Assembly (NCBI GenBank): GCA_043815245.1
Contig: JBDRJD010000008.1
Span: forward strand, 163 to 64,162
Length of the DNA stretch: 64,000 nucleotides
Reading direction: 5' to 3'
From: an archaeon
Lineage (GTDB): Archaea; Nanobdellota; Nanobdellia; Pacearchaeales; GW2011-AR1
Shown piece after piece: positions 6,793-61,604 of this stretch (positions are counted from its first letter, which is position 1; every line of letters starts with the position of its first letter). The position numbers and the translations under genes were made by a program. The notes below the pieces were generated by a model, which was not told the origin of the DNA, did not search any database, and saw nothing but the letters and a program-made list of their open reading frames with translations.

Positions 6793-7188
6793 ATGAAAAT
6801 GGATGGGATAGGATTTTATAAAGTATTAATAAACCCAAAAGCAGAATTTGATCAGCAAGAGCTATGGAAAGAAGGGATTTATACAAGCTTAAGAGAAGAA
6901 TATGATCTACCTGTAGGAGCTATATTTTACTTTAGGGGTTTATTTGGAAAACTAGCAGATACTACACAAAGAGAAACAGATCCAGAAAAAATAGAAAAAA
7001 GATACATAGAAGCAATACTTGAACCTCTAAGAGAAGGAGAAAAAGAAAAAAGACTTGGACCGACAGATTTTCAAAGATGCTTAGAAAGACTGGATATTAG
7101 AGGTTTAACAAAACTTTTAAAATCTGAAGAAAGCGCTTTCTTTAAGCCGGAAATAAAAACAGATTTAGAAAACCTAGCCTCACTTTAA
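6793..7188 (+). CDS. Hypothetical cytosolic protein (131 aa)
   Basis: ORF with ATG start and no recognisable motif. Its 3' end overlaps the 3' end of the convergent 7180-8598 gene by 9 nt. Confidence 0.45.
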   Translation: MKMDGIGFYKVLINPKAEFDQQELWKEGIYTSLREEYDLPVGAIFYFRGLFGKLADTTQRETDPEKIEKRYIEAILEPLREGEKEKRLGPTDFQRCLERLDIRGLTKLLKSEESAFFKPEIKTDLENLASL

Positions 7189-56310: not shown

Positions 56311-57125
56311 TTTATATCATCAAACGCAGAAACCAGTCCATATTTTCTTCGTTCTATTATTTCCTTAATAACTCCATTTCTTTCTGCTATTTCATAAATT
56401 GGCTTTTTTCTATTTTCTTCATCAACTAATTCATCAATTCTAAACGCACTTGCAGCTTCCATAACTCTTTGAGAACCATAAGGTAAGTAAACTTTTATGC
56501 CAAAATGCGAGCTCATCTTATCTGATATTCCAAGATGATTTTCAATTAATCTTCCCATATCTTGTTTTAATTTTTCTCTACTTACTTCAGGATCCGAAGA
56601 TCTATGGCTATAATATCCCCCCATTAACTCATCAATAACATCGCAACATATCACCTTATCTGTACCTTCAGACAAAATTTTCATTAACATATAATAATTA
56701 TCAGGCCTATCCATATTAGCTCTTAGTATTTCATTTGAAGATCTTATATCTTCTTTAATGACTTCAGTAAAATGTAAAGTATGCCCTAAATTAATATGTC
56801 TTTCTTTTAGTTCTCCAAAAAATCTCTTAGCATAAACCATATCTGGATGTTCTTCATTTATTGCAAGTGTATGGGCTACCACTAAATCGGAAGTTCTAAT
56901 TTCTCCTAATAATCTAACTAAAATCAAAGAAGAATCAACTCCTCCTGAAAAAGCTAAATGAACTTCTCTTTCTTCTTTTAAAATTTCTCTGCAAATCTCA
57001 TTTACAGAACTATTAATTGCTCTTTCTAATGAATCAATTTTACTCTTATAACTTTTTTCAGAAACATTTGCTTCAAACTGATAATTCCTTATTCTCTCAA
57101 ATAATTCATCCTTTCCTACTATCAT
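56307..57125 (-). CDS. Asparagine-synthetase-like PP-loop ATP pyrophosphatase without a glutaminase domain
   Basis: 272 aa. PP-loop VHLAFSGGVDSSLI. AsnB C-domain-like CCDVIDELMGGYYSH and KVYLPYGSQRVMEAA. Confidence 0.65.
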   Translation of the reverse strand: MIVGKDELFERIRNYQFEANVSEKSYKSKIDSLERAINSSVNEICREILKEEREVHLAFSGGVDSSLILVRLLGEIRTSDLVVAHTLAINEEHPDMVYAKRFFGELKERHINLGHTLHFTEVIKEDIRSSNEILRANMDRPDNYYMLMKILSEGTDKVICCDVIDELMGGYYSHRSSDPEVSREKLKQDMGRLIENHLGISDKMSSHFGIKVYLPYGSQRVMEAASAFRIDELVDEENRKKPIYEIAERNGVIKEIIERRKYGLVSAFDDIK

Positions 57126-57372
57126 TCCTAGCTCCTATCACCCCACTTTCAACATGCCATCCTCCTTCCAGACACTCCTCGCTAAATTCTACTTTAACTT
57201 CCTTCTTCTCAAAGTCGTGTCCAATAGCTTCCTTCTTATCAATTTTATGCTTCCCACACTTACAGTGTTCAATCGAATACTGTGCATCTTCATGATCTCC
57301 ACCACAGTGATGAACTTTATGTCCTTCATTTTCATGATGCACATGATGAAACAATTCTAGTATCTCTCCCAT
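57106..57372 (-). CDS. His/Cys-rich miniprotein (putative metal-binding)
   Basis: I prefer the ATG at 57372 (88 aa), 1 nt after the upstream TGA. It has 12 His and 4 Cys (FHHVHHENEGHKVHHCGGDHED..EHCKCGKH). Confidence 0.5.
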   Translation of the reverse strand: MGEILELFHHVHHENEGHKVHHCGGDHEDAQYSIEHCKCGKHKIDKKEAIGHDFEKKEVKVEFSEECLEGGWHVESGVIGARNDSRKG

Positions 57373-57373
57373 T

Positions 57374-57994
57374 TCAATTTCCTTTTGAAATATAATGCTC
57401 AAACGCTTTTATAACTGCTGCATGAATATTATCTGCCAGCGCTTCATACTCTTCGTAAGTTGGGAAAAAATCATACTCTATCTTACTCCCATTTACTGAA
57501 AAATCAGATAAATTTGCTATCTCTGGTTCAAACCTCGACCCTTTGTAAATTTCCTGAACAGCTTCAACATTCCTATCATTCATTGCAAGAATCAAACCAG
57601 AGTCTGGCCTCACAACCATTTGCTTCATAGGCTCACTCAGCGCCTTTAAACTCTTAGCACCTAAAACCCTCTTTACACACCCCCATTCATACTCAAAAGC
57701 CTGCTCAATGGCTAATAAAGAAGCTTTATCATTTTCAGCTTTTACAGCTTCAATTAGCTTACTATCTAAAGCCTGAGTACTTACTCCTCTATCAAGGTAA
57801 GGTAATAAAAATTCTCTAGCTGCTTGGGGATCTTTCATTGACTTCTGCGCATCTAAAGCTCTAGAACCACTTGAACTTAGCCTTACTCCTACAAGCTGCT
57901 TATATCTTACTTTTACATCCCCTCCAATAGCTTCAGCTATAATGCTCCTGCAAACATTAGCTGAACAAGCAAACTCAACATCTGTGATAACCAT
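57374..57994 (-). CDS. Low-molecular-weight phosphotyrosine phosphatase/ArsC-fold protein
   Basis: 206 aa. N-terminal C-X5-R-S P-loop FACSANVCRSIIAEAI. Confidence 0.6.
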   Translation of the reverse strand: MVITDVEFACSANVCRSIIAEAIGGDVKVRYKQLVGVRLSSSGSRALDAQKSMKDPQAAREFLLPYLDRGVSTQALDSKLIEAVKAENDKASLLAIEQAFEYEWGCVKRVLGAKSLKALSEPMKQMVVRPDSGLILAMNDRNVEAVQEIYKGSRFEPEIANLSDFSVNGSKIEYDFFPTYEEYEALADNIHAAVIKAFEHYISKGN

Positions 57995-59123: not shown

Positions 59124-59837
59124 ATGGAAATTCTAGATCTATTCAAGAAAAAGGTGGAAAAGCAAATTGATTTTTCAGTAGCAAAGCATATTGATGGAAA
59201 CTATGATGATTTTAAAAATCGCTTAAAAAAAGATAGCTTAATAGTTTTAATTACAGGGAAGAGAGGTTCAGGAAAAACAGCTCTTGGCTTTAAATTTTTA
59301 GAACTAGTTTCAGGAAAAAGAAAAGCTTATTACCTTGGAAAAGCAAAACTTCCAAGGTTCATTAAAAAAGTTGACGATATAAAAGAAGTAAGAAATGACT
59401 CGGTAGTTTTAGTAGACGAAGCAGCAATAACTTACTCTGCGAGAAGCTCAATGAAAAAGTCAAATAAAATTCTATCAGAATTAATGACAATTGCGAGGCA
59501 TAAGGGCCTTTCCTTAATTATAATCACTCAAAGTTGTATGCCTCTAAAAACAAAAATAATAACTGAAAAAGGAGTTCAATCGCTAGGAAAATTAAAAATG
59601 GGCGATAAGGTTCTTTCATATAATATCAAGAAAAGAAGACTAGAATTTAAAAAAGTTTTTGCCATATCTCCAATAAAAAAGCAAAGGGTGATAGAAATTC
59701 AAACGCAAGATGGAAAAATAATTAAATGCTCTCCTGAACATAAATTAATTGTTAAAAAAGAAGAGAAGTTAATTAAGAAAAAAGCCAAAGACCTCACAGA
59801 AAAAGATATATTATTCAAACCATTAAATACTGAATAA
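59124..59837 (+). CDS. N-terminal half of a fractured P-loop NTPase (Zot-like) fused to a split-intein N-fragment
   Basis: 237 aa. Extein residues 1-137 carry Walker A GKRGSGKT, Walker B VVLVDEA and ARHKGLSLIIITQS. From Cys138 (59535) the sequence reads CMPLKTKIITEKG..GDKVLSYN..IKCSPEHKLIV (intein blocks A/B), then TAA. Confidence 0.8.
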   Translation: MEILDLFKKKVEKQIDFSVAKHIDGNYDDFKNRLKKDSLIVLITGKRGSGKTALGFKFLELVSGKRKAYYLGKAKLPRFIKKVDDIKEVRNDSVVLVDEAAITYSARSSMKKSNKILSELMTIARHKGLSLIIITQSCMPLKTKIITEKGVQSLGKLKMGDKVLSYNIKKRRLEFKKVFAISPIKKQRVIEIQTQDGKIIKCSPEHKLIVKKEEKLIKKKAKDLTEKDILFKPLNTE

Positions 59838-61343
59838 ATTTAATCTTTACCATTTTTATATTCTAAAACACAGTTTCTAGAGCAAAATTTAGCCCTGCCC
59901 CTCTTTACATCAGCAGGATTTGGATAAAAAACCTCTTTACAATTTAAACATAATTTTTTATTTTTTTCATTAGTGAAGTCCGTCTGACATTTGTTAGAAC
60001 AAAATTTTCTGATTCTATATCTAGGTACAATAAATTTATTATTACAATTTTTACAATTTAAAGTGACTCTATGATAATTATTTTTGCAATTCAGATCACA
60101 AAATTGTTGAGTTAGGGCTCTTGAAGATATTGTTAGAAATTTTTGCCCACAGGATTTACATATTTTAGTTATAATTATTCTTCTTTTAGATTTTTTTATT
60201 GGAACTTTTTCTTTAGATATATTAACTAATTCAGGATTTTTATTGATAATATTTTTTATTAAACCTTCAGAATTATTATTTATTTGAGTTTCATTAAAAA
60301 CAAAAACATTATATCCTTTCTTTTTTAAATACTTAATTTTTATTTTGTCTTTATTACAAGATCTGGGAAACAATTTAGGATTATGCCAAAAATCTCCATT
60401 GCATTCAATAATAATATTAGGGGGAATAAAAAAATCAACAAAATAATTTCTTTTTCCAGATGCATTTTTAATAGGTTTTTCTTGCTCAAAATAAATGTTA
60501 TATTTTTCCAATAAATCTCTTATCTTAGATTCAATTAATGTTTCATTTTTAGATTTTTTAGAACATTCTTGACTGCAATACTGTTGAATTTCTTTAAAAT
60601 ATCTTGCTCTAATAAATTCTTTGTTACACCAGGCGCATTTGAGTTTGACCAATCCTCCTCCTTTAATTCTTTCTTCAACAGTTTTATTAGGAAAATTATC
60701 TCTACAAATTCTTGAGCAAAATATGCCTTCTCCTCTAACAAGTTTAGCTTGTTCAACATAAAAATCATTTTCACAAGTAGGGCAAATTTTATAAGAACCT
60801 CTCAAATTTTTTCCAATATAAGATTTATTTCTACATTCAATTGAACAATATTTGGCGGGATTTTTTTTAGAAGTCCAAAACCACTTTTGACATTTTGGAC
60901 ATTTAACTTTCTTATTATATTTATTTCTTATATAAATTCTAGTGCATTCACTTGAGCAAGTTGGTGCTTTGATTTTTTCTTGATAAGGCCATATATTATA
61001 ATTCTTACTGCAAATAGTACACTGCTTCTTCAGCACATTATTCTTTCGATTCATATGACATTTTCTACTGCAAAAAGTTCCCCCCCATTTTAATCTACTT
61101 TCTAAAATAAAGAATTCTTTTTTACAAGTAGGACATATTTGTTTAACTCTCTTTTTCATTTTGATACACAAACAGAAAGTCAGAAACATATATAAACTTT
61201 TCTTTTTTATTATAATTATGAAAAAACAAAATTTTGTTAGAATTAAGAATATAAAGAGATTGATTAAAAAAGAGTCTATGATAGACATCACTATAGAAGA
61301 TAATGAAAACTTTATCTTATCAAATGGCATATGCGTTAGTAAT
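59535..61343 (+). mobile_element. Split intein plus antisense endonuclease gene (selfish insertion inside the NTPase gene)
   Basis: Bounded by intein residue Cys+1 (59535) and the terminal Asn codon (61341-61343). It contains the endonuclease ORF on the opposite strand. Confidence 0.7.
59840..61159 (-). CDS. Free-standing homing-endonuclease candidate: Vsr/DUF559-like nuclease core flanked by 5+3 zinc-ribbon repeats
   Basis: I prefer the ATG at 61159 (MKKRVKQICPTCKKEF..), giving 439 aa. Eight CxxC..x10-16..CSxxC units. Core YFVDFFIPPNIIIECNGDFWHN..KKKGYNVFVFNETQI resembles the Vsr pattern (..FVdGCFWHgH..GW.V..vWEce). Confidence 0.7.
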   Translation of the reverse strand: MKKRVKQICPTCKKEFFILESRLKWGGTFCSRKCHMNRKNNVLKKQCTICSKNYNIWPYQEKIKAPTCSSECTRIYIRNKYNKKVKCPKCQKWFWTSKKNPAKYCSIECRNKSYIGKNLRGSYKICPTCENDFYVEQAKLVRGEGIFCSRICRDNFPNKTVEERIKGGGLVKLKCAWCNKEFIRARYFKEIQQYCSQECSKKSKNETLIESKIRDLLEKYNIYFEQEKPIKNASGKRNYFVDFFIPPNIIIECNGDFWHNPKLFPRSCNKDKIKIKYLKKKGYNVFVFNETQINNNSEGLIKNIINKNPELVNISKEKVPIKKSKRRIIITKICKSCGQKFLTISSRALTQQFCDLNCKNNYHRVTLNCKNCNNKFIVPRYRIRKFCSNKCQTDFTNEKNKKLCLNCKEVFYPNPADVKRGRAKFCSRNCVLEYKNGKD

Positions 61344-61604
61344 TCTGCAATGATAGATCTTAATGTAATGCGTCTAGCAGACACAATTATCTTTAAAGAG
61401 CCTTCTTTACTTCAAAGCAGGTTTGAAAGAAAAGCCTTAGTTGACTTATTTAAAAAAGCAGATGAAAATTTTAATAAAATTCCAAAAAAAGACAATAAGA
61501 AAAAATACTTCTATGTCTTAGATGACGAATTTGAAGGCCTACTTTCTTCAACGCTTCCTAGCTTTTGGAGTGATAAGATTTCCAAGAGTTTTGCTAAGTA
61601 TTAG
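61218..61604 (+). CDS. Split-intein C-fragment fused to the C-terminal half of the fractured P-loop NTPase
   Basis: ATG at 61218. 42 aa MKKQNFVRIKNIKRLIKKESMIDITIEDNENFILSNGICVSN, then +1 Ser (61344) and an 86-aa extein SAMIDLNVMRLADTIIFKEP... The track start at 61161 is an alternative-codon extension. Confidence 0.75.
   Translation: MKKQNFVRIKNIKRLIKKESMIDITIEDNENFILSNGICVSNSAMIDLNVMRLADTIIFKEPSLLQSRFERKALVDLFKKADENFNKIPKKDNKKKYFYVLDDEFEGLLSSTLPSFWSDKISKSFAKY

Follow-up and report, generated by a model that had tools for sequence, protein, structure and literature searches.

The EDxHD family of homing endonucleases is represented by I-Bth0305I (Taylor et al. 2011, PMC3239194, PDB 3r3p), which lies in a phage group I intron and carries N-terminal NUMOD/helix-turn-helix modules and a C-terminal core. 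The endonuclease described here, encoded in a 64,000-nucleotide stretch of DNA (hereafter the window), has the same nuclease fold and catalytic residues; both enzymes are encoded inside a self-splicing element of a conserved gene and both are bipartite, with a DNA-binding region (putative in the present case) and a Vsr-like catalytic domain. However, unlike I-Bth0305I, the window endonuclease has eight FCS-type zinc fingers placed on both sides of its core, and it resides in an intein on an archaeal chromosome.

A second closely related system is the fractured gene (Dassa et al. 2009, PMC2677866), in which an intein is the point where a host gene is split into two neighboring ORFs that keep their original order, a free-standing Vsr-like endonuclease gene stands between the halves and the cassette seems to carry control elements of its own; the window locus is alike in these respects. 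In all of the published loci (26/26) the three ORFs share a strand; these loci come mostly from phages, concern enzymes of DNA synthesis or repair and show hairpins and phage late promoters ahead of their endonuclease genes (PMC2677866). In the window and its orthologous loci, in contrast, the endonuclease gene is antisense (7/7 loci), the host gene is a DPANN archaeal NTPase gene and an archaeal-type TATA box common to two divergent genes would serve as control element. Because the same-strand feature, which is descriptive and not definitional, is absent, the locus is filed as a variant of the fractured-gene arrangement. Furthermore, inteins of actinobacteriophages contain VSR-like endonuclease genes on the strand opposite to the intein (bioRxiv 10.1101/2025.01.02.630785), which is likewise the case here, but those inteins keep an unbroken frame (full intein), their endonucleases have a helical extension with zinc fingers not being mentioned, and the hosts are phages. 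The sequence-only reading did not recognise the architecture as a described homing-endonuclease type, and this has to be corrected, since the EDxHD family (PMC3239194), the fractured genes (PMC2677866) and the antisense Vsr-like intein endonucleases (10.1101/2025.01.02.630785) are published.

The zinc units share the signature C-x2-C...(F/Y)-C-S-x2-C with the treble-clef fingers of the FCS/MYM/TRASH type (PF06467; PHC1 2l8e, L3MBTL2 2w0t, YacG and eL24), but they have a shorter spacer, form tandem arrays with as many as 13 members, are fused to mobile-element nucleases and give weak matches. In outline they also resemble engineered zinc-finger nucleases (C2H2 fingers and FokI), where tandem small zinc modules tether a nuclease probably needing dimerisation, although both the finger fold and the nuclease are unrelated and no recognition code is known for the window fingers. 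New features are the zinc-finger array on both sides of the core, the location on an archaeal chromosome and the antisense order of genes around a single common TATA box. We hold with good confidence that the window encodes a free-standing EDxHD homing endonuclease whose gene was inserted antisense in a mini-intein of a Zot-like NTPase gene, making a fractured gene, and whose fingers would hold the DNA while the core cleaves.

Organization of the Locus

The features of the locus are as follows (positions are those of the window).

59124 to 59534, plus strand: N-extein, aa 1-137 of a Zot-like P-loop NTPase (Pfam Zot and nSTAND3 matches), ending ...IIITQS
59535 to 59837, plus strand: N-terminal half of the split intein, 100 aa, with CMPLKTKIIT and CSPEHKL, to FKPLNTE; stop TAA at 59835-59837
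59840 to 61159, minus strand: free-standing gene of the predicted homing endonuclease, 439 aa and stop; 5 zinc units, Vsr-like core, 3 zinc units
59870 to 60160, minus strand: C-terminal array, zinc units 6-8 (60086-60160, 59987-60055, 59870-59950)
60230 to 60547, minus strand: Vsr-like (EDxHD) nuclease core, aa 205-310 (phmmer, Foldseek and core profile)
Key residues of the core, minus strand: E210 at 60530-60532, D242 at 60434-60436, E252 at 60404-60406, F257-W258-H259 at 60383-60391, D271 at 60347-60349
60563 to 61135, minus strand: N-terminal array, zinc units 1-5 (61058-61135, 60944-61021, 60833-60901, 60704-60784, 60563-60637)
61160 to 61217, no strand: divergent intergenic region, 58 bp, with a single near-palindromic TATA box at 61189-61196 (TTTATATA, minus strand)
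61218 to 61343, plus strand: C-terminal half of the split intein, 42 aa, from MKKQNFVRIK to NENFILSNGICVSN
61344 to 61604, plus strand: C-extein, 86 aa and stop, opening SAMIDLNV; aligns with intein-less alleles directly after ...TQ(N/S)
Extein junction of the window, exteins joined (slash): ...ATCACTCAAAGT / TCTGCAATG...

One host gene is thus present as two neighboring ORFs whose order and orientation are unchanged, each with a split-intein half, and the endonuclease gene lies antisense between these halves at the intein break point in the window and in six orthologous loci; the arrangement was seen in all six orthologue loci fetched, with differing gene neighbours. This supports the earlier proposal that the protein is the intein-associated homing endonuclease of the NTPase gene. 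The N-extein contains a Walker A motif (GKRGSGKT) and a Walker B motif (VVLVDEA) and is 71-76% identical to intein-less alleles. The host is a DPANN archaeon chromosome, DPANN-like being judged from the source names of homologues.

The N-terminal intein half matches Pfam Intein_splicing (E 6.4e-12) and TIGR01445 intein_Nterm (32.1 bits, cut-off 24.5), and the C-terminal half, which is conserved in the six orthologous loci, matches TIGR01443 intein_Cterm (26.7 bits, cut-off 15.6) and Pfam Intein_splicing (E 4e-4). The unbroken mini-intein allele P0287 is colinear with both halves across the break point. Splicing motifs are present, namely C138, CSPEH (a TxxH-type block B) and ...VSN/S (the slash marks the junction), but the C-terminal half ends in VSN or VCN and lacks the usual penultimate His, so splicing competence is an assumption.

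The TATA box stands 29 nt upstream of the endonuclease ATG; the C-terminal half-gene, read on the opposite strand, has its ATG 21 nt downstream of the box. A (T/C)TTATATA-like box occurs 19-29 nt upstream of the endonuclease ATG in 7/7 loci, and in all loci this single box is common to the endonuclease gene and the C-terminal half-gene. From what is generally known of archaeal promoters, it would act as a promoter. At the other end, in four loci, the endonuclease gene and the N-terminal half-gene run into each other at their 3' ends, with an overlap of 12-23 nt.

The endonuclease ORF runs on the minus strand from ATG 61159 to a stop TAA at 59840-59842. This ATG is favored as the start because an equivalent M..KKRVK opens all 10 orthologues, and it is also backed by the position of the TATA box; for the same two reasons a longer ORF from GTG 61384 was dropped. 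The GC content of the gene is 25.6%, that of the window 35.4%. The orthologues (n = 10) are 54-64% identical to the window endonuclease, the reading frame is intact in 11/11 proteins including that of the window, and pN/pS is 0.30 with saturated synonymous sites; pN/pS is given since this saturation leaves dN/dS proper beyond estimation. The endonuclease gene is under purifying selection, and conservation of the ORF as coding sequence in related genomes, on which the sequence-only reading had made its proposal depend, was found. Outside the orthologues, tblastn against GenBank phages gave one weak and uninformative match (Microcystis phage MaeS), a search of GTDB genomes by this one protein returned only a distant Zixibacteria match, and a scan of a viral contig collection with the orthologue alignment found no relative.

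Nuclease Core

The core, at aa ~205-310, includes YFVDFFIPPNIIIECNGDFWHNP, the segment already quoted from the letters as Vsr/DUF559-like. That description holds: Pfam DUF559 (PF04480) matches aa 237-306 with 24.3 bits (cut-off 20.6), and a profile of the core matches, in the PDB, 3r3p (2.4e-15), 3hrl (6e-10) and E. coli Vsr 1cw0 (3.7e-7), so that, as regards PD-(D/E)xK/Vsr-like similarity, the core is Vsr-like. In addition, the best PDB match by phmmer is 3r3p (E 1.3e-4), with D242 on D196 and H259 on H213, and the top Foldseek match is 3r3p_B (probability 1.0, target-normalised TM 0.69). Residues E210, D242, E252, H259 and D271 align with E170, D196, the acidic E206, H213 and D222 of I-Bth0305I, whose catalytic roles are described in PMC3239194. 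E210, D242, E252 and H259 are invariant in the 11 orthologues, and E210, D242 and H259 also over 32 diverse relatives; D271, the last EDxHD residue, is N in 2/11 orthologues and is not invariant in the wider family. The Pfam Vsr model (PF03852) gives no match to the window protein, and only one of the Vsr zinc ligands has a counterpart in the core (C253). The core belongs to the EDxHD homing-endonuclease family.

Zinc Units

The pattern C..C.{8,20}C...C finds exactly eight units in the protein (aa 9-34, 47-72, 87-109, 126-152, 175-199, 334-358, 369-391 and 404-430), in agreement with the eight C-x2-C...C-x3-C units, five before and three after the core, that had been read off the sequence as quoted there; the finer description of their second half as (F/Y)CS is true of most units, but unit 2 has TCS and unit 6 FCD. 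The units hold 32 of the 34 cysteines of the protein, whereas among 2000 residue shuffles 1700 gave no unit, 285 one and 15 two. The motif is absent from every other real ORF of the window.

The 32 zinc-ligand cysteines are invariant (32/32) across the 11 orthologues, and the same unit is 54-81% identical between orthologues, compared with 27-50% between different units. The N-terminal array is strongly basic (aa 1-204 hold 49 K+R and 15 D+E) and is the most constrained part of the protein (pN/pS 0.24). In 100 sampled units the cysteines are invariant (100/100) and the serine is found in at least 90%. The spacer between the second and third cysteines is 13-18 residues, that of TRASH fingers 19-22.

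The suggested resemblance to FCS/TRASH fingers is borne out, since the Pfam model that the units match most often is zf-FCS (at E <= 0.01 it is matched by 26 of 100 units taken singly) and the PHC1 FCS finger (2l8e) is their sole full-length sequence match in the PDB. The window protein itself scores 17.2 bits against zf-FCS (PF06467), below the gathering cut-off of 22.4 bits, and therefore the units are termed FCS-like; the relatives P0208 (45 bits) and P0151 (32.3 bits) exceed this cut-off. Unit 8 modelled alone by AlphaFold2 (pLDDT 91.6) is a beta-hairpin followed by helices, and the top fold matches of the unit model are YacG, eL24 and the L3MBTL2 FCS finger (2w0t), with query-normalised TM of 0.51-0.63 but E > 0.4. 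Membership in C2H2 was rejected, as its E of 1.7e-10 is a sum of many partial matches to the CxxCGKxF knuckle, a likeness confined to the first half of the unit. The predicted structure of the whole endonuclease has a pTM of 0.42, which indicates that the units are like beads on a string, without fixed geometry. The array probably serves DNA recognition. FCS/MYM/TRASH fingers elsewhere are known to bind RNA, protein or metal, and are not known to bind DNA in a sequence-specific manner (PMC4047054, PMC4999995).

Alleles of the NTPase Gene

More than 100 intein-less alleles of the NTPase gene and one unbroken mini-intein allele were found, and empty, mini-intein and fractured alleles coexist in related DPANN genomes. 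An example of an intein-less allele is L010 1501-2175, and the mini-intein allele is at L008 3001-4098. In an extein tree of 124 leaves the intein-bearing alleles are scattered among empty ones over the whole tree, and the window allele, like three of the other five fractured alleles that were compared (L004, L006 and L014), has an intein-less allele as its closest relative by extein. Identity to the other loci is higher for the intein and endonuclease (58-64%) than for the extein (52-58%). Among the fractured loci the exteins are 52-84% identical, and the arrangement is strictly conserved. At the empty-allele extein junction no clear palindrome was found, the best having 6-7 of 10 positions, which is not informative. 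GAATTC lies across the extein junction in two of three empty alleles.

Proposed Mechanism and Alternatives

In the preferred explanation, an endonuclease gene would have entered the mini-intein antisense, at the usual point of endonuclease insertion, and split intein and host gene into two ORFs, one of the N-extein with the 100-aa N-intein and the other of the 42-aa C-intein with the C-extein. One TATA box would drive transcription in both directions, of the endonuclease gene on one side and of the C-terminal half-gene on the other, giving leaderless or near-leaderless mRNAs, and protein trans-splicing would rejoin both host fragments, so that the insertion would be cheap for the host. The endonuclease may then bind an element-less allele, either intein-less or with an unbroken mini-intein, the two basic FCS/TRASH-type arrays (five N-terminal and three C-terminal units) gripping the DNA on either side of the cut. 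The Vsr-like core would cut with D242 as Mg2+ ligand and H259 as general base, F257 and W258 adjoining as in Vsr; by analogy with I-Bth0305I the enzyme is probably dimeric. Recombinational repair would finally copy the element into the cut allele.

In the weighing of this explanation, the fusion of zinc units to Vsr-like, HNH and LAGLIDADG nucleases was counted for the fingers being the nucleic-acid-binding module of mobile nucleases, as were P0015, P0013 and the PHROG matches described below. Mobility was argued from the many intein-less alleles, the extein tree, the higher identity of intein and endonuclease and the low GC content of the endonuclease gene, and functionality from pN/pS, the invariant cysteines and the separate identity of each unit. 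Counted against were the variability of D271, the known roles of FCS-type fingers, the absence of a clear palindrome for an I-Bth0305I-like dimer, the absence of a viral-contig relative and the C-intein without penultimate His.

A tentative alternative, less likely than not to be right but a serious one, is that the protein is a homing endonuclease whose zinc units do not read sequence, being a basic non-specific DNA clamp or binding RNA or protein, for example in dimerisation, with specificity residing in the core. It overlaps with the preferred explanation except on the role of the fingers. Characterised FCS fingers are known to bind nucleic acid without sequence specificity, or proteins (PMC4047054), and the strong basicity of the arrays and the beads-on-a-string prediction at pTM 0.42 are in line with this; moreover, the specificity of I-Bth0305I is highest in the 14 bp centered on the cleavage site (PMC3239194). 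However, every unit retains a sequence of its own from one orthologue to the next and is under stronger constraint than the core, which is unexpected for a generic clamp, and the number and sequence of units vary widely among family members in different host genes.

It is improbable that the element is domesticated or "stuck", that is, that homing was lost and the cassette kept for the promoter of the C-terminal half-gene, for antisense or convergent regulation of the NTPase gene or for a host DNA-repair or defence nuclease activity. Such a history would suit the purifying selection and strict arrangement across loci with exteins only 52-84% identical, the TATA box common with the C-terminal half-gene in all loci and the 12-23 nt overlap of the 3' ends in four loci, but service as a promoter would put no constraint on the sequence of the protein, its catalytic residues or the 32 cysteines. 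Furthermore, the element is sporadic among intein-less alleles and less diverged than its host gene, which is more in keeping with transfer than with an ancient fixation. Prolonged conservation under purifying selection, seen in several lineages, could also be a sign of domestication.

A cellular Vsr-type mismatch-repair nickase or restriction-like defence nuclease, standing by chance beside the NTPase gene, is very improbable and by genomic context already close to refuted: one source names the orthologue P0003 "very-short-patch-repair endonuclease" and the core matches Vsr at 3.7e-7, but the gene sits exactly at the intein break point in 7/7 loci with otherwise different neighbors, the window protein gives no match to the Pfam Vsr model, its nearest relative of solved structure is a homing endonuclease and not Vsr, and the context is an intein without an adjacent methyltransferase partner and not a dcm-vsr pair. 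Equally improbable is a decaying, inactive remnant at the end stage of the homing cycle, which the N in place of the usual D at position 254 (ECNG instead of ECDG) might suggest, since active I-Bth0305I also has N at the equivalent position, all 11 orthologues have an intact frame, the catalytic residues do not vary and pN/pS is 0.30.

Zinc Arrays in Other Mobile Nucleases

A profile of the zinc unit matches about 11,800 protein clusters (50% identity). Arrays hold 1-13 units and are joined to Vsr-like, HNH or LAGLIDADG nucleases. P0015, for example, consists of NUMOD3 repeats, one zinc unit and the core, the endonuclease P0013 (five units and the core) is encoded within a fractured dUTPase gene, on the same strand as the latter, and PHROG families annotated as HNH endonucleases match the zinc units. 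The number and sequence of units differ widely between family members in different host genes. The architecture of zinc array and nuclease is not unique to this protein; the combination is abundant in sequence databases, though no paper describing it was found. A literature search on homing endonucleases with FCS, TRASH or zinc-ribbon terms gave no description of the arrays, its coverage being incomplete and such absence no proof.

A bolder proposal, to which we give only a small chance, is that FCS-type fingers are a natural, modular, sequence-reading array of thousands of mobile nucleases (Vsr-like, HNH and LAGLIDADG) in archaea, bacteria, phages and giant viruses, each unit reading a few bp and two-sided arrays such as the 5+3 array lying astride the cut. 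If this is true, these proteins are in effect natural zinc-finger nucleases, and should the fingers read sequence, nature would offer in them a new scaffold for DNA targeting; since fractured genes and introns reveal the target of each enzyme, a recognition code would be derivable by pairing arrays with inferred targets. The authors of the I-Bth0305I study proposed the fusion of its nuclease domain to zinc-finger arrays, and a comparable fusion has apparently been made by nature.

The locus points to a large protein class in which FCS-like zinc fingers in tandem are combined with nucleases of three unrelated folds, and for which no published description was found. In addition, the common TATA box suggests how an antisense insertion can keep the downstream gene half expressed, and the locus extends the fractured-gene model of split-intein origin to archaeal chromosomes. 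Because related DPANN genomes still contain the NTPase gene in its empty, mini-intein and fractured states, each step of this model is directly comparable.

Arrangement of the Locus

The endonuclease gene is located between two plus-strand halves of a gene for a Zot-like P-loop NTPase and fills the gap between them on the opposite strand. The features are as follows.

Features of the fractured NTPase gene (window positions)
59124-59837, plus strand: N-terminal 137 aa of the NTPase, then the in-frame N-terminal half of the intein (Intein_splicing, 6.4e-12; TIGR01445 above cut-off)
59840-61159, minus strand: endonuclease of 439 aa, ATG at 61159, stop at 59840-59842
61189-61196: near-palindromic TATA box, about the middle of the divergent spacer 61160-61217
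61218-61604, plus strand: C-terminal half of the intein, then the remainder of the NTPase (TIGR01443 above cut-off)

The locus is a "fractured gene" in the sense of Dassa et al. 2009 (PMC2677866), in which an intein is split and a free-standing endonuclease gene separates the two parts. Half of the loci of Dassa et al. carried a Vsr-like endonuclease, new at that time, and the three ORFs were on the same strand in 26 of 26 published loci (PMC2677866), whereas the endonuclease gene of the window is antisense. Antisense Vsr-like endonucleases were reported within phage inteins in a 2025 preprint (10.1101/2025.01.02.630785), but those inteins are unbroken.

ATG 61159 is taken as the start because all ten orthologues begin at the equivalent methionine and a TATA box lies upstream; GTG 61384, which gives a longer ORF, was rejected as the start of a gene. 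The endonuclease gene converges on the N-terminal half-gene, and their 3' ends are 2 nt apart in the window and overlap by 12-23 nt in four orthologous loci (L001, L004, L006 and L015); such convergent transcription could couple the expression of both. The C-inteins of the window (61332-61343) and of the orthologous loci end in VSN or VCN, without the usual penultimate histidine, and the residue preceding the intein is N in the empty (intein-less) alleles and S in the window and L006. A small ORF (57106-57402, minus strand) encodes a His-rich peptide (…HHVHHENEGHKVHHCGGDHED…) without a Pfam match, and may be a metal-binding protein or not a gene.

The Nuclease Core

About 105 residues, including the YFVDFFIPPNIIIECNGDFWHNP stretch, separate the fifth and sixth zinc units. 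The core matches Pfam DUF559 (24.3 bits, cut-off 20.6), and the closest solved structure by sequence is 3r3p (E 1.3e-4), from the catalytic domain of I-Bth0305I, a homing endonuclease (PMC3239194). With a profile built from 32 diverse cores the match to 3r3p improved to 2.4e-15; next came the DUF559 structure 3hrl (6e-10) and E. coli Vsr (3.7e-7 and 7.8e-7). In addition, a Foldseek search of the PDB with the AlphaFold2 model of the endonuclease (mean pLDDT 79.9, pTM 0.42) gave 3r3p_B as the top match (probability 1.0, target-normalised TM 0.69).

D242 and H259 align with D196A and H213A, the two residues mutated in the 3r3p crystal, and E210, E252 and D271 with E170, E206 and D222 of I-Bth0305I; the name "EDxHD" derives from E170, D196, E206, H213 and D222 (PMC3239194). 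E210, D242, E252, F257, W258 and H259 do not vary among the 11 orthologues; of these, E210, D242 and H259 stay unchanged throughout the wider family as well. D271 is replaced by N in two orthologues. Residue 254 is N in the window protein versus D in most relatives, and is likewise N in the active I-Bth0305I. Agreement in profile, predicted fold and catalytic residues places the core in the published Vsr-like/EDxHD homing-endonuclease family (PMC3239194) rather than in a new type. The earlier interpretation of the protein is upheld as to its Vsr/DUF559-like fold, the kind of finger and its part in homing, and fails in the claim of an undescribed type of homing endonuclease.

Zinc Units and Their Distribution

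A regular expression found exactly eight C-x2-C-x(13-18)-C-x3-C units, five N-terminal of the core (aa 9-34, 47-72, 87-109, 126-152 and 175-199) and three C-terminal of it (aa 334-358, 369-391 and 404-430), which contain 32 of the 34 cysteines. When the residues were shuffled, 85% of trials gave no unit and the maximum was two, so the array noticed from the sequence is real.

A profile made from 100 units had a single full-length match in the PDB, the FCS finger of PHC1 (2l8e, E 0.012). In single-unit Pfam scans zf-FCS was the top match (26 of 100 units), and fewer units matched YacG, zf-FCS_1, zf-FLZ, DUF2256, MYND and HIT; apart from zf-FCS_1, all figure in published lists of TRASH-family fingers (PMC4047054, PMC4999995). 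The window protein scores 17.2 bits for zf-FCS, under the cut-off of 22.4, which its relatives P0208 and P0151 exceed. The model of a single unit is confident (pLDDT 91.6) and comes closest in fold to YacG, archaeal eL24 and the L3MBTL2 FCS finger (query-normalised TM 0.51-0.63), with non-significant E-values for so small a domain. High C2H2 scores were discounted as summed partial matches to a CxxCGKxF knuckle. Taken together, the PHC1 match and the Pfam scans make "FCS/TRASH-like treble-clef finger" a fair label, with the treble-clef fold as a prediction, in line with the resemblance first suspected.

The orthologue profile matched 11,811 clusters (50% identity) at E <= 1e-3 and 2,181 at E <= 1e-10. 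In most of the best 150 of the 11,811, a Vsr-like core forms the C-terminal part and 1-11 units precede it; the unit number varies among homologues. By HMM classification of these 150, two-sided arrays are rare (P0138, 5+core+6; P0151, 4+core+2); P0208 has no core by HMM, and its sequence has four units on either side of a Vsr-like EIFGEHWH stretch. The Vsr-like core is absent from a quarter of the 150, and the coreless relatives checked include P0140 (six units, HNH, five units), P0196 and P0249 (with HNH) and P0223 (five units, LAGLIDADG_3, two units). Furthermore, PHROG families labelled "HNH endonuclease" match the units, the model has 162 matches at E <= 1e-3 among predicted viral structures, which come from tailed phages and giant viruses, and in P0015 one unit and the core stand alongside NUMOD3 repeats. 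P0013 (285 aa, five units and a Vsr-like core) is encoded within a dUTPase gene fractured by a split intein (L017, 2286-4141), on the same strand as the dUTPase halves and with a 29-nt overlap with the downstream half; this is the classic layout of Dassa et al., here with the zinc-finger type of endonuclease.

Since the units are fused to Vsr-like, HNH and LAGLIDADG nucleases, the finger is an accessory module that occurs promiscuously in mobile nucleases, across several homing-endonuclease classes, and takes the position held by NUMOD modules in I-Bth0305I. A literature search found no published description of it. The window's orthologue group stands apart by its two-sided layout, fixed at 5+3.

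Orthologues and Allele States

The ORF is kept as coding sequence in ten full-length orthologues of 439-499 aa (54-64% identity), which come from metagenomes and archaeal genomes assembled from them. All ten have the 5+core+3 build, and the antisense arrangement within the NTPase gene was found in 6/6 loci fetched, whose neighbours vary (ribosomal proteins, SAM synthetase, TsaD, DEAD helicase). P0009 (499 aa) has an additional C-terminal tail of ~55 aa (…KKGIATKKYLRKNTNLTLSILEKRLKTLVDEDIIFKKSRGVYSLN), not seen in the other ten, which resembles a small domain of winged-helix type.

Intein-less homologues of the spliced NTPase (219-260 aa) number more than 100, and their sources name them Nanoarchaeota, Pacearchaeota and Woesearchaeota. 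Moreover, P0287 (365 aa, Aenigmarchaeota GCA_016783545.1, L008/L009 3001-4098) has an unbroken mini-intein of ~140 aa at the same site without an endonuclease gene, colinear with the window halves over the break point (KPISL-KEKF versus KPLNTE|MKKQNF) and presumed to be the precursor state. Therefore, empty, mini-intein and fractured alleles coexist, as predicted by the Dassa model. The Aenigmarchaeota genome is intein-rich; from 6927-7098 on, L008 also carries the gene for a topoisomerase VI B subunit of 1612 aa, into which two inteins are inserted, one with LAGLIDADG.

Signs of Mobility and Selection

Judged by the exteins, an intein-less allele is the closest relative of the window (75.6%) and of three of five other fractured alleles compared (L004, 75.5%; L006, 75.9%; L014, 61%), and in a neighbour-joining tree the intein-bearing alleles share a last common ancestor that takes in all 124 leaves. 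Comparison of the window with three other fractured loci gives identities of 52-58% in the exteins, 60-63% in the intein and 58-64% in the endonuclease; the element has diverged less than its host gene. The GC content (endonuclease gene 25.6%, two NTPase/intein ORFs 28-29%, 64-kb window 35.4%) is compositional evidence for a foreign origin. The tree, identity and GC patterns favour repeated transfer rather than a single ancient acquisition, with multiple losses as a less likely alternative.

The endonuclease is under purifying selection, with pN 0.23 and pS ~0.78, at which synonymous differences are saturated.

Ratio pN/pS by region of the endonuclease
N-terminal zinc array: 0.24 (most constrained)
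Nuclease core: 0.32
C-terminal zinc array: 0.36
Linker, aa 311-330: 0.66

Shared TATA Box and Proposed Mechanism

A TTTATATA box lies 19-29 nt upstream of the endonuclease ATG in 7/7 loci, a spacing which suits leaderless archaeal mRNAs. On the other strand, six of the seven loci have it at 21-28 nt from the start codon of the C-terminal half-gene, the exception being L015, with a spacer of 30 nt and a called start that is probably extended. In the window and in the equivalent spacers of L001, L004, L006, L014 and L016 (50-58 bp) the box sits about midway, some 19-29 nt from either start codon. The box looks like a bidirectional promoter for two leaderless genes, and because it is near both divergent ATGs, the cassette may supply the promoter needed by the severed C-terminal half-gene.

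The data show to which family the enzyme belongs, how the locus is arranged and conserved, that selection acts on the protein, and which allele states exist. In the proposed mechanism, the endonuclease would be transcribed from this box and would cut an allele without the element, intein-less or mini-intein, with the basic finger arrays (net K+R minus D+E of +34 N-terminal and +23 C-terminal) presumably gripping DNA on either side of the core; trans-splicing would rejoin the two NTPase fragments. Units share 54-81% identity with their counterparts in orthologues but only 27-50% with other units, which is compatible with position-specific roles and falls short of proving sequence reading. No strong palindrome was seen at the empty-allele junction. 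The insertion point is in the middle of GAATTC (CAGAAT|TC) in two of three intein-less alleles (L010, L012 and L013).

An EDxHD enzyme in a fractured gene is of a kind already known; new are the two-sided array of FCS-like fingers, the location on the chromosome of a DPANN archaeon and the antisense placement of the endonuclease gene around a TATA box that is shared.
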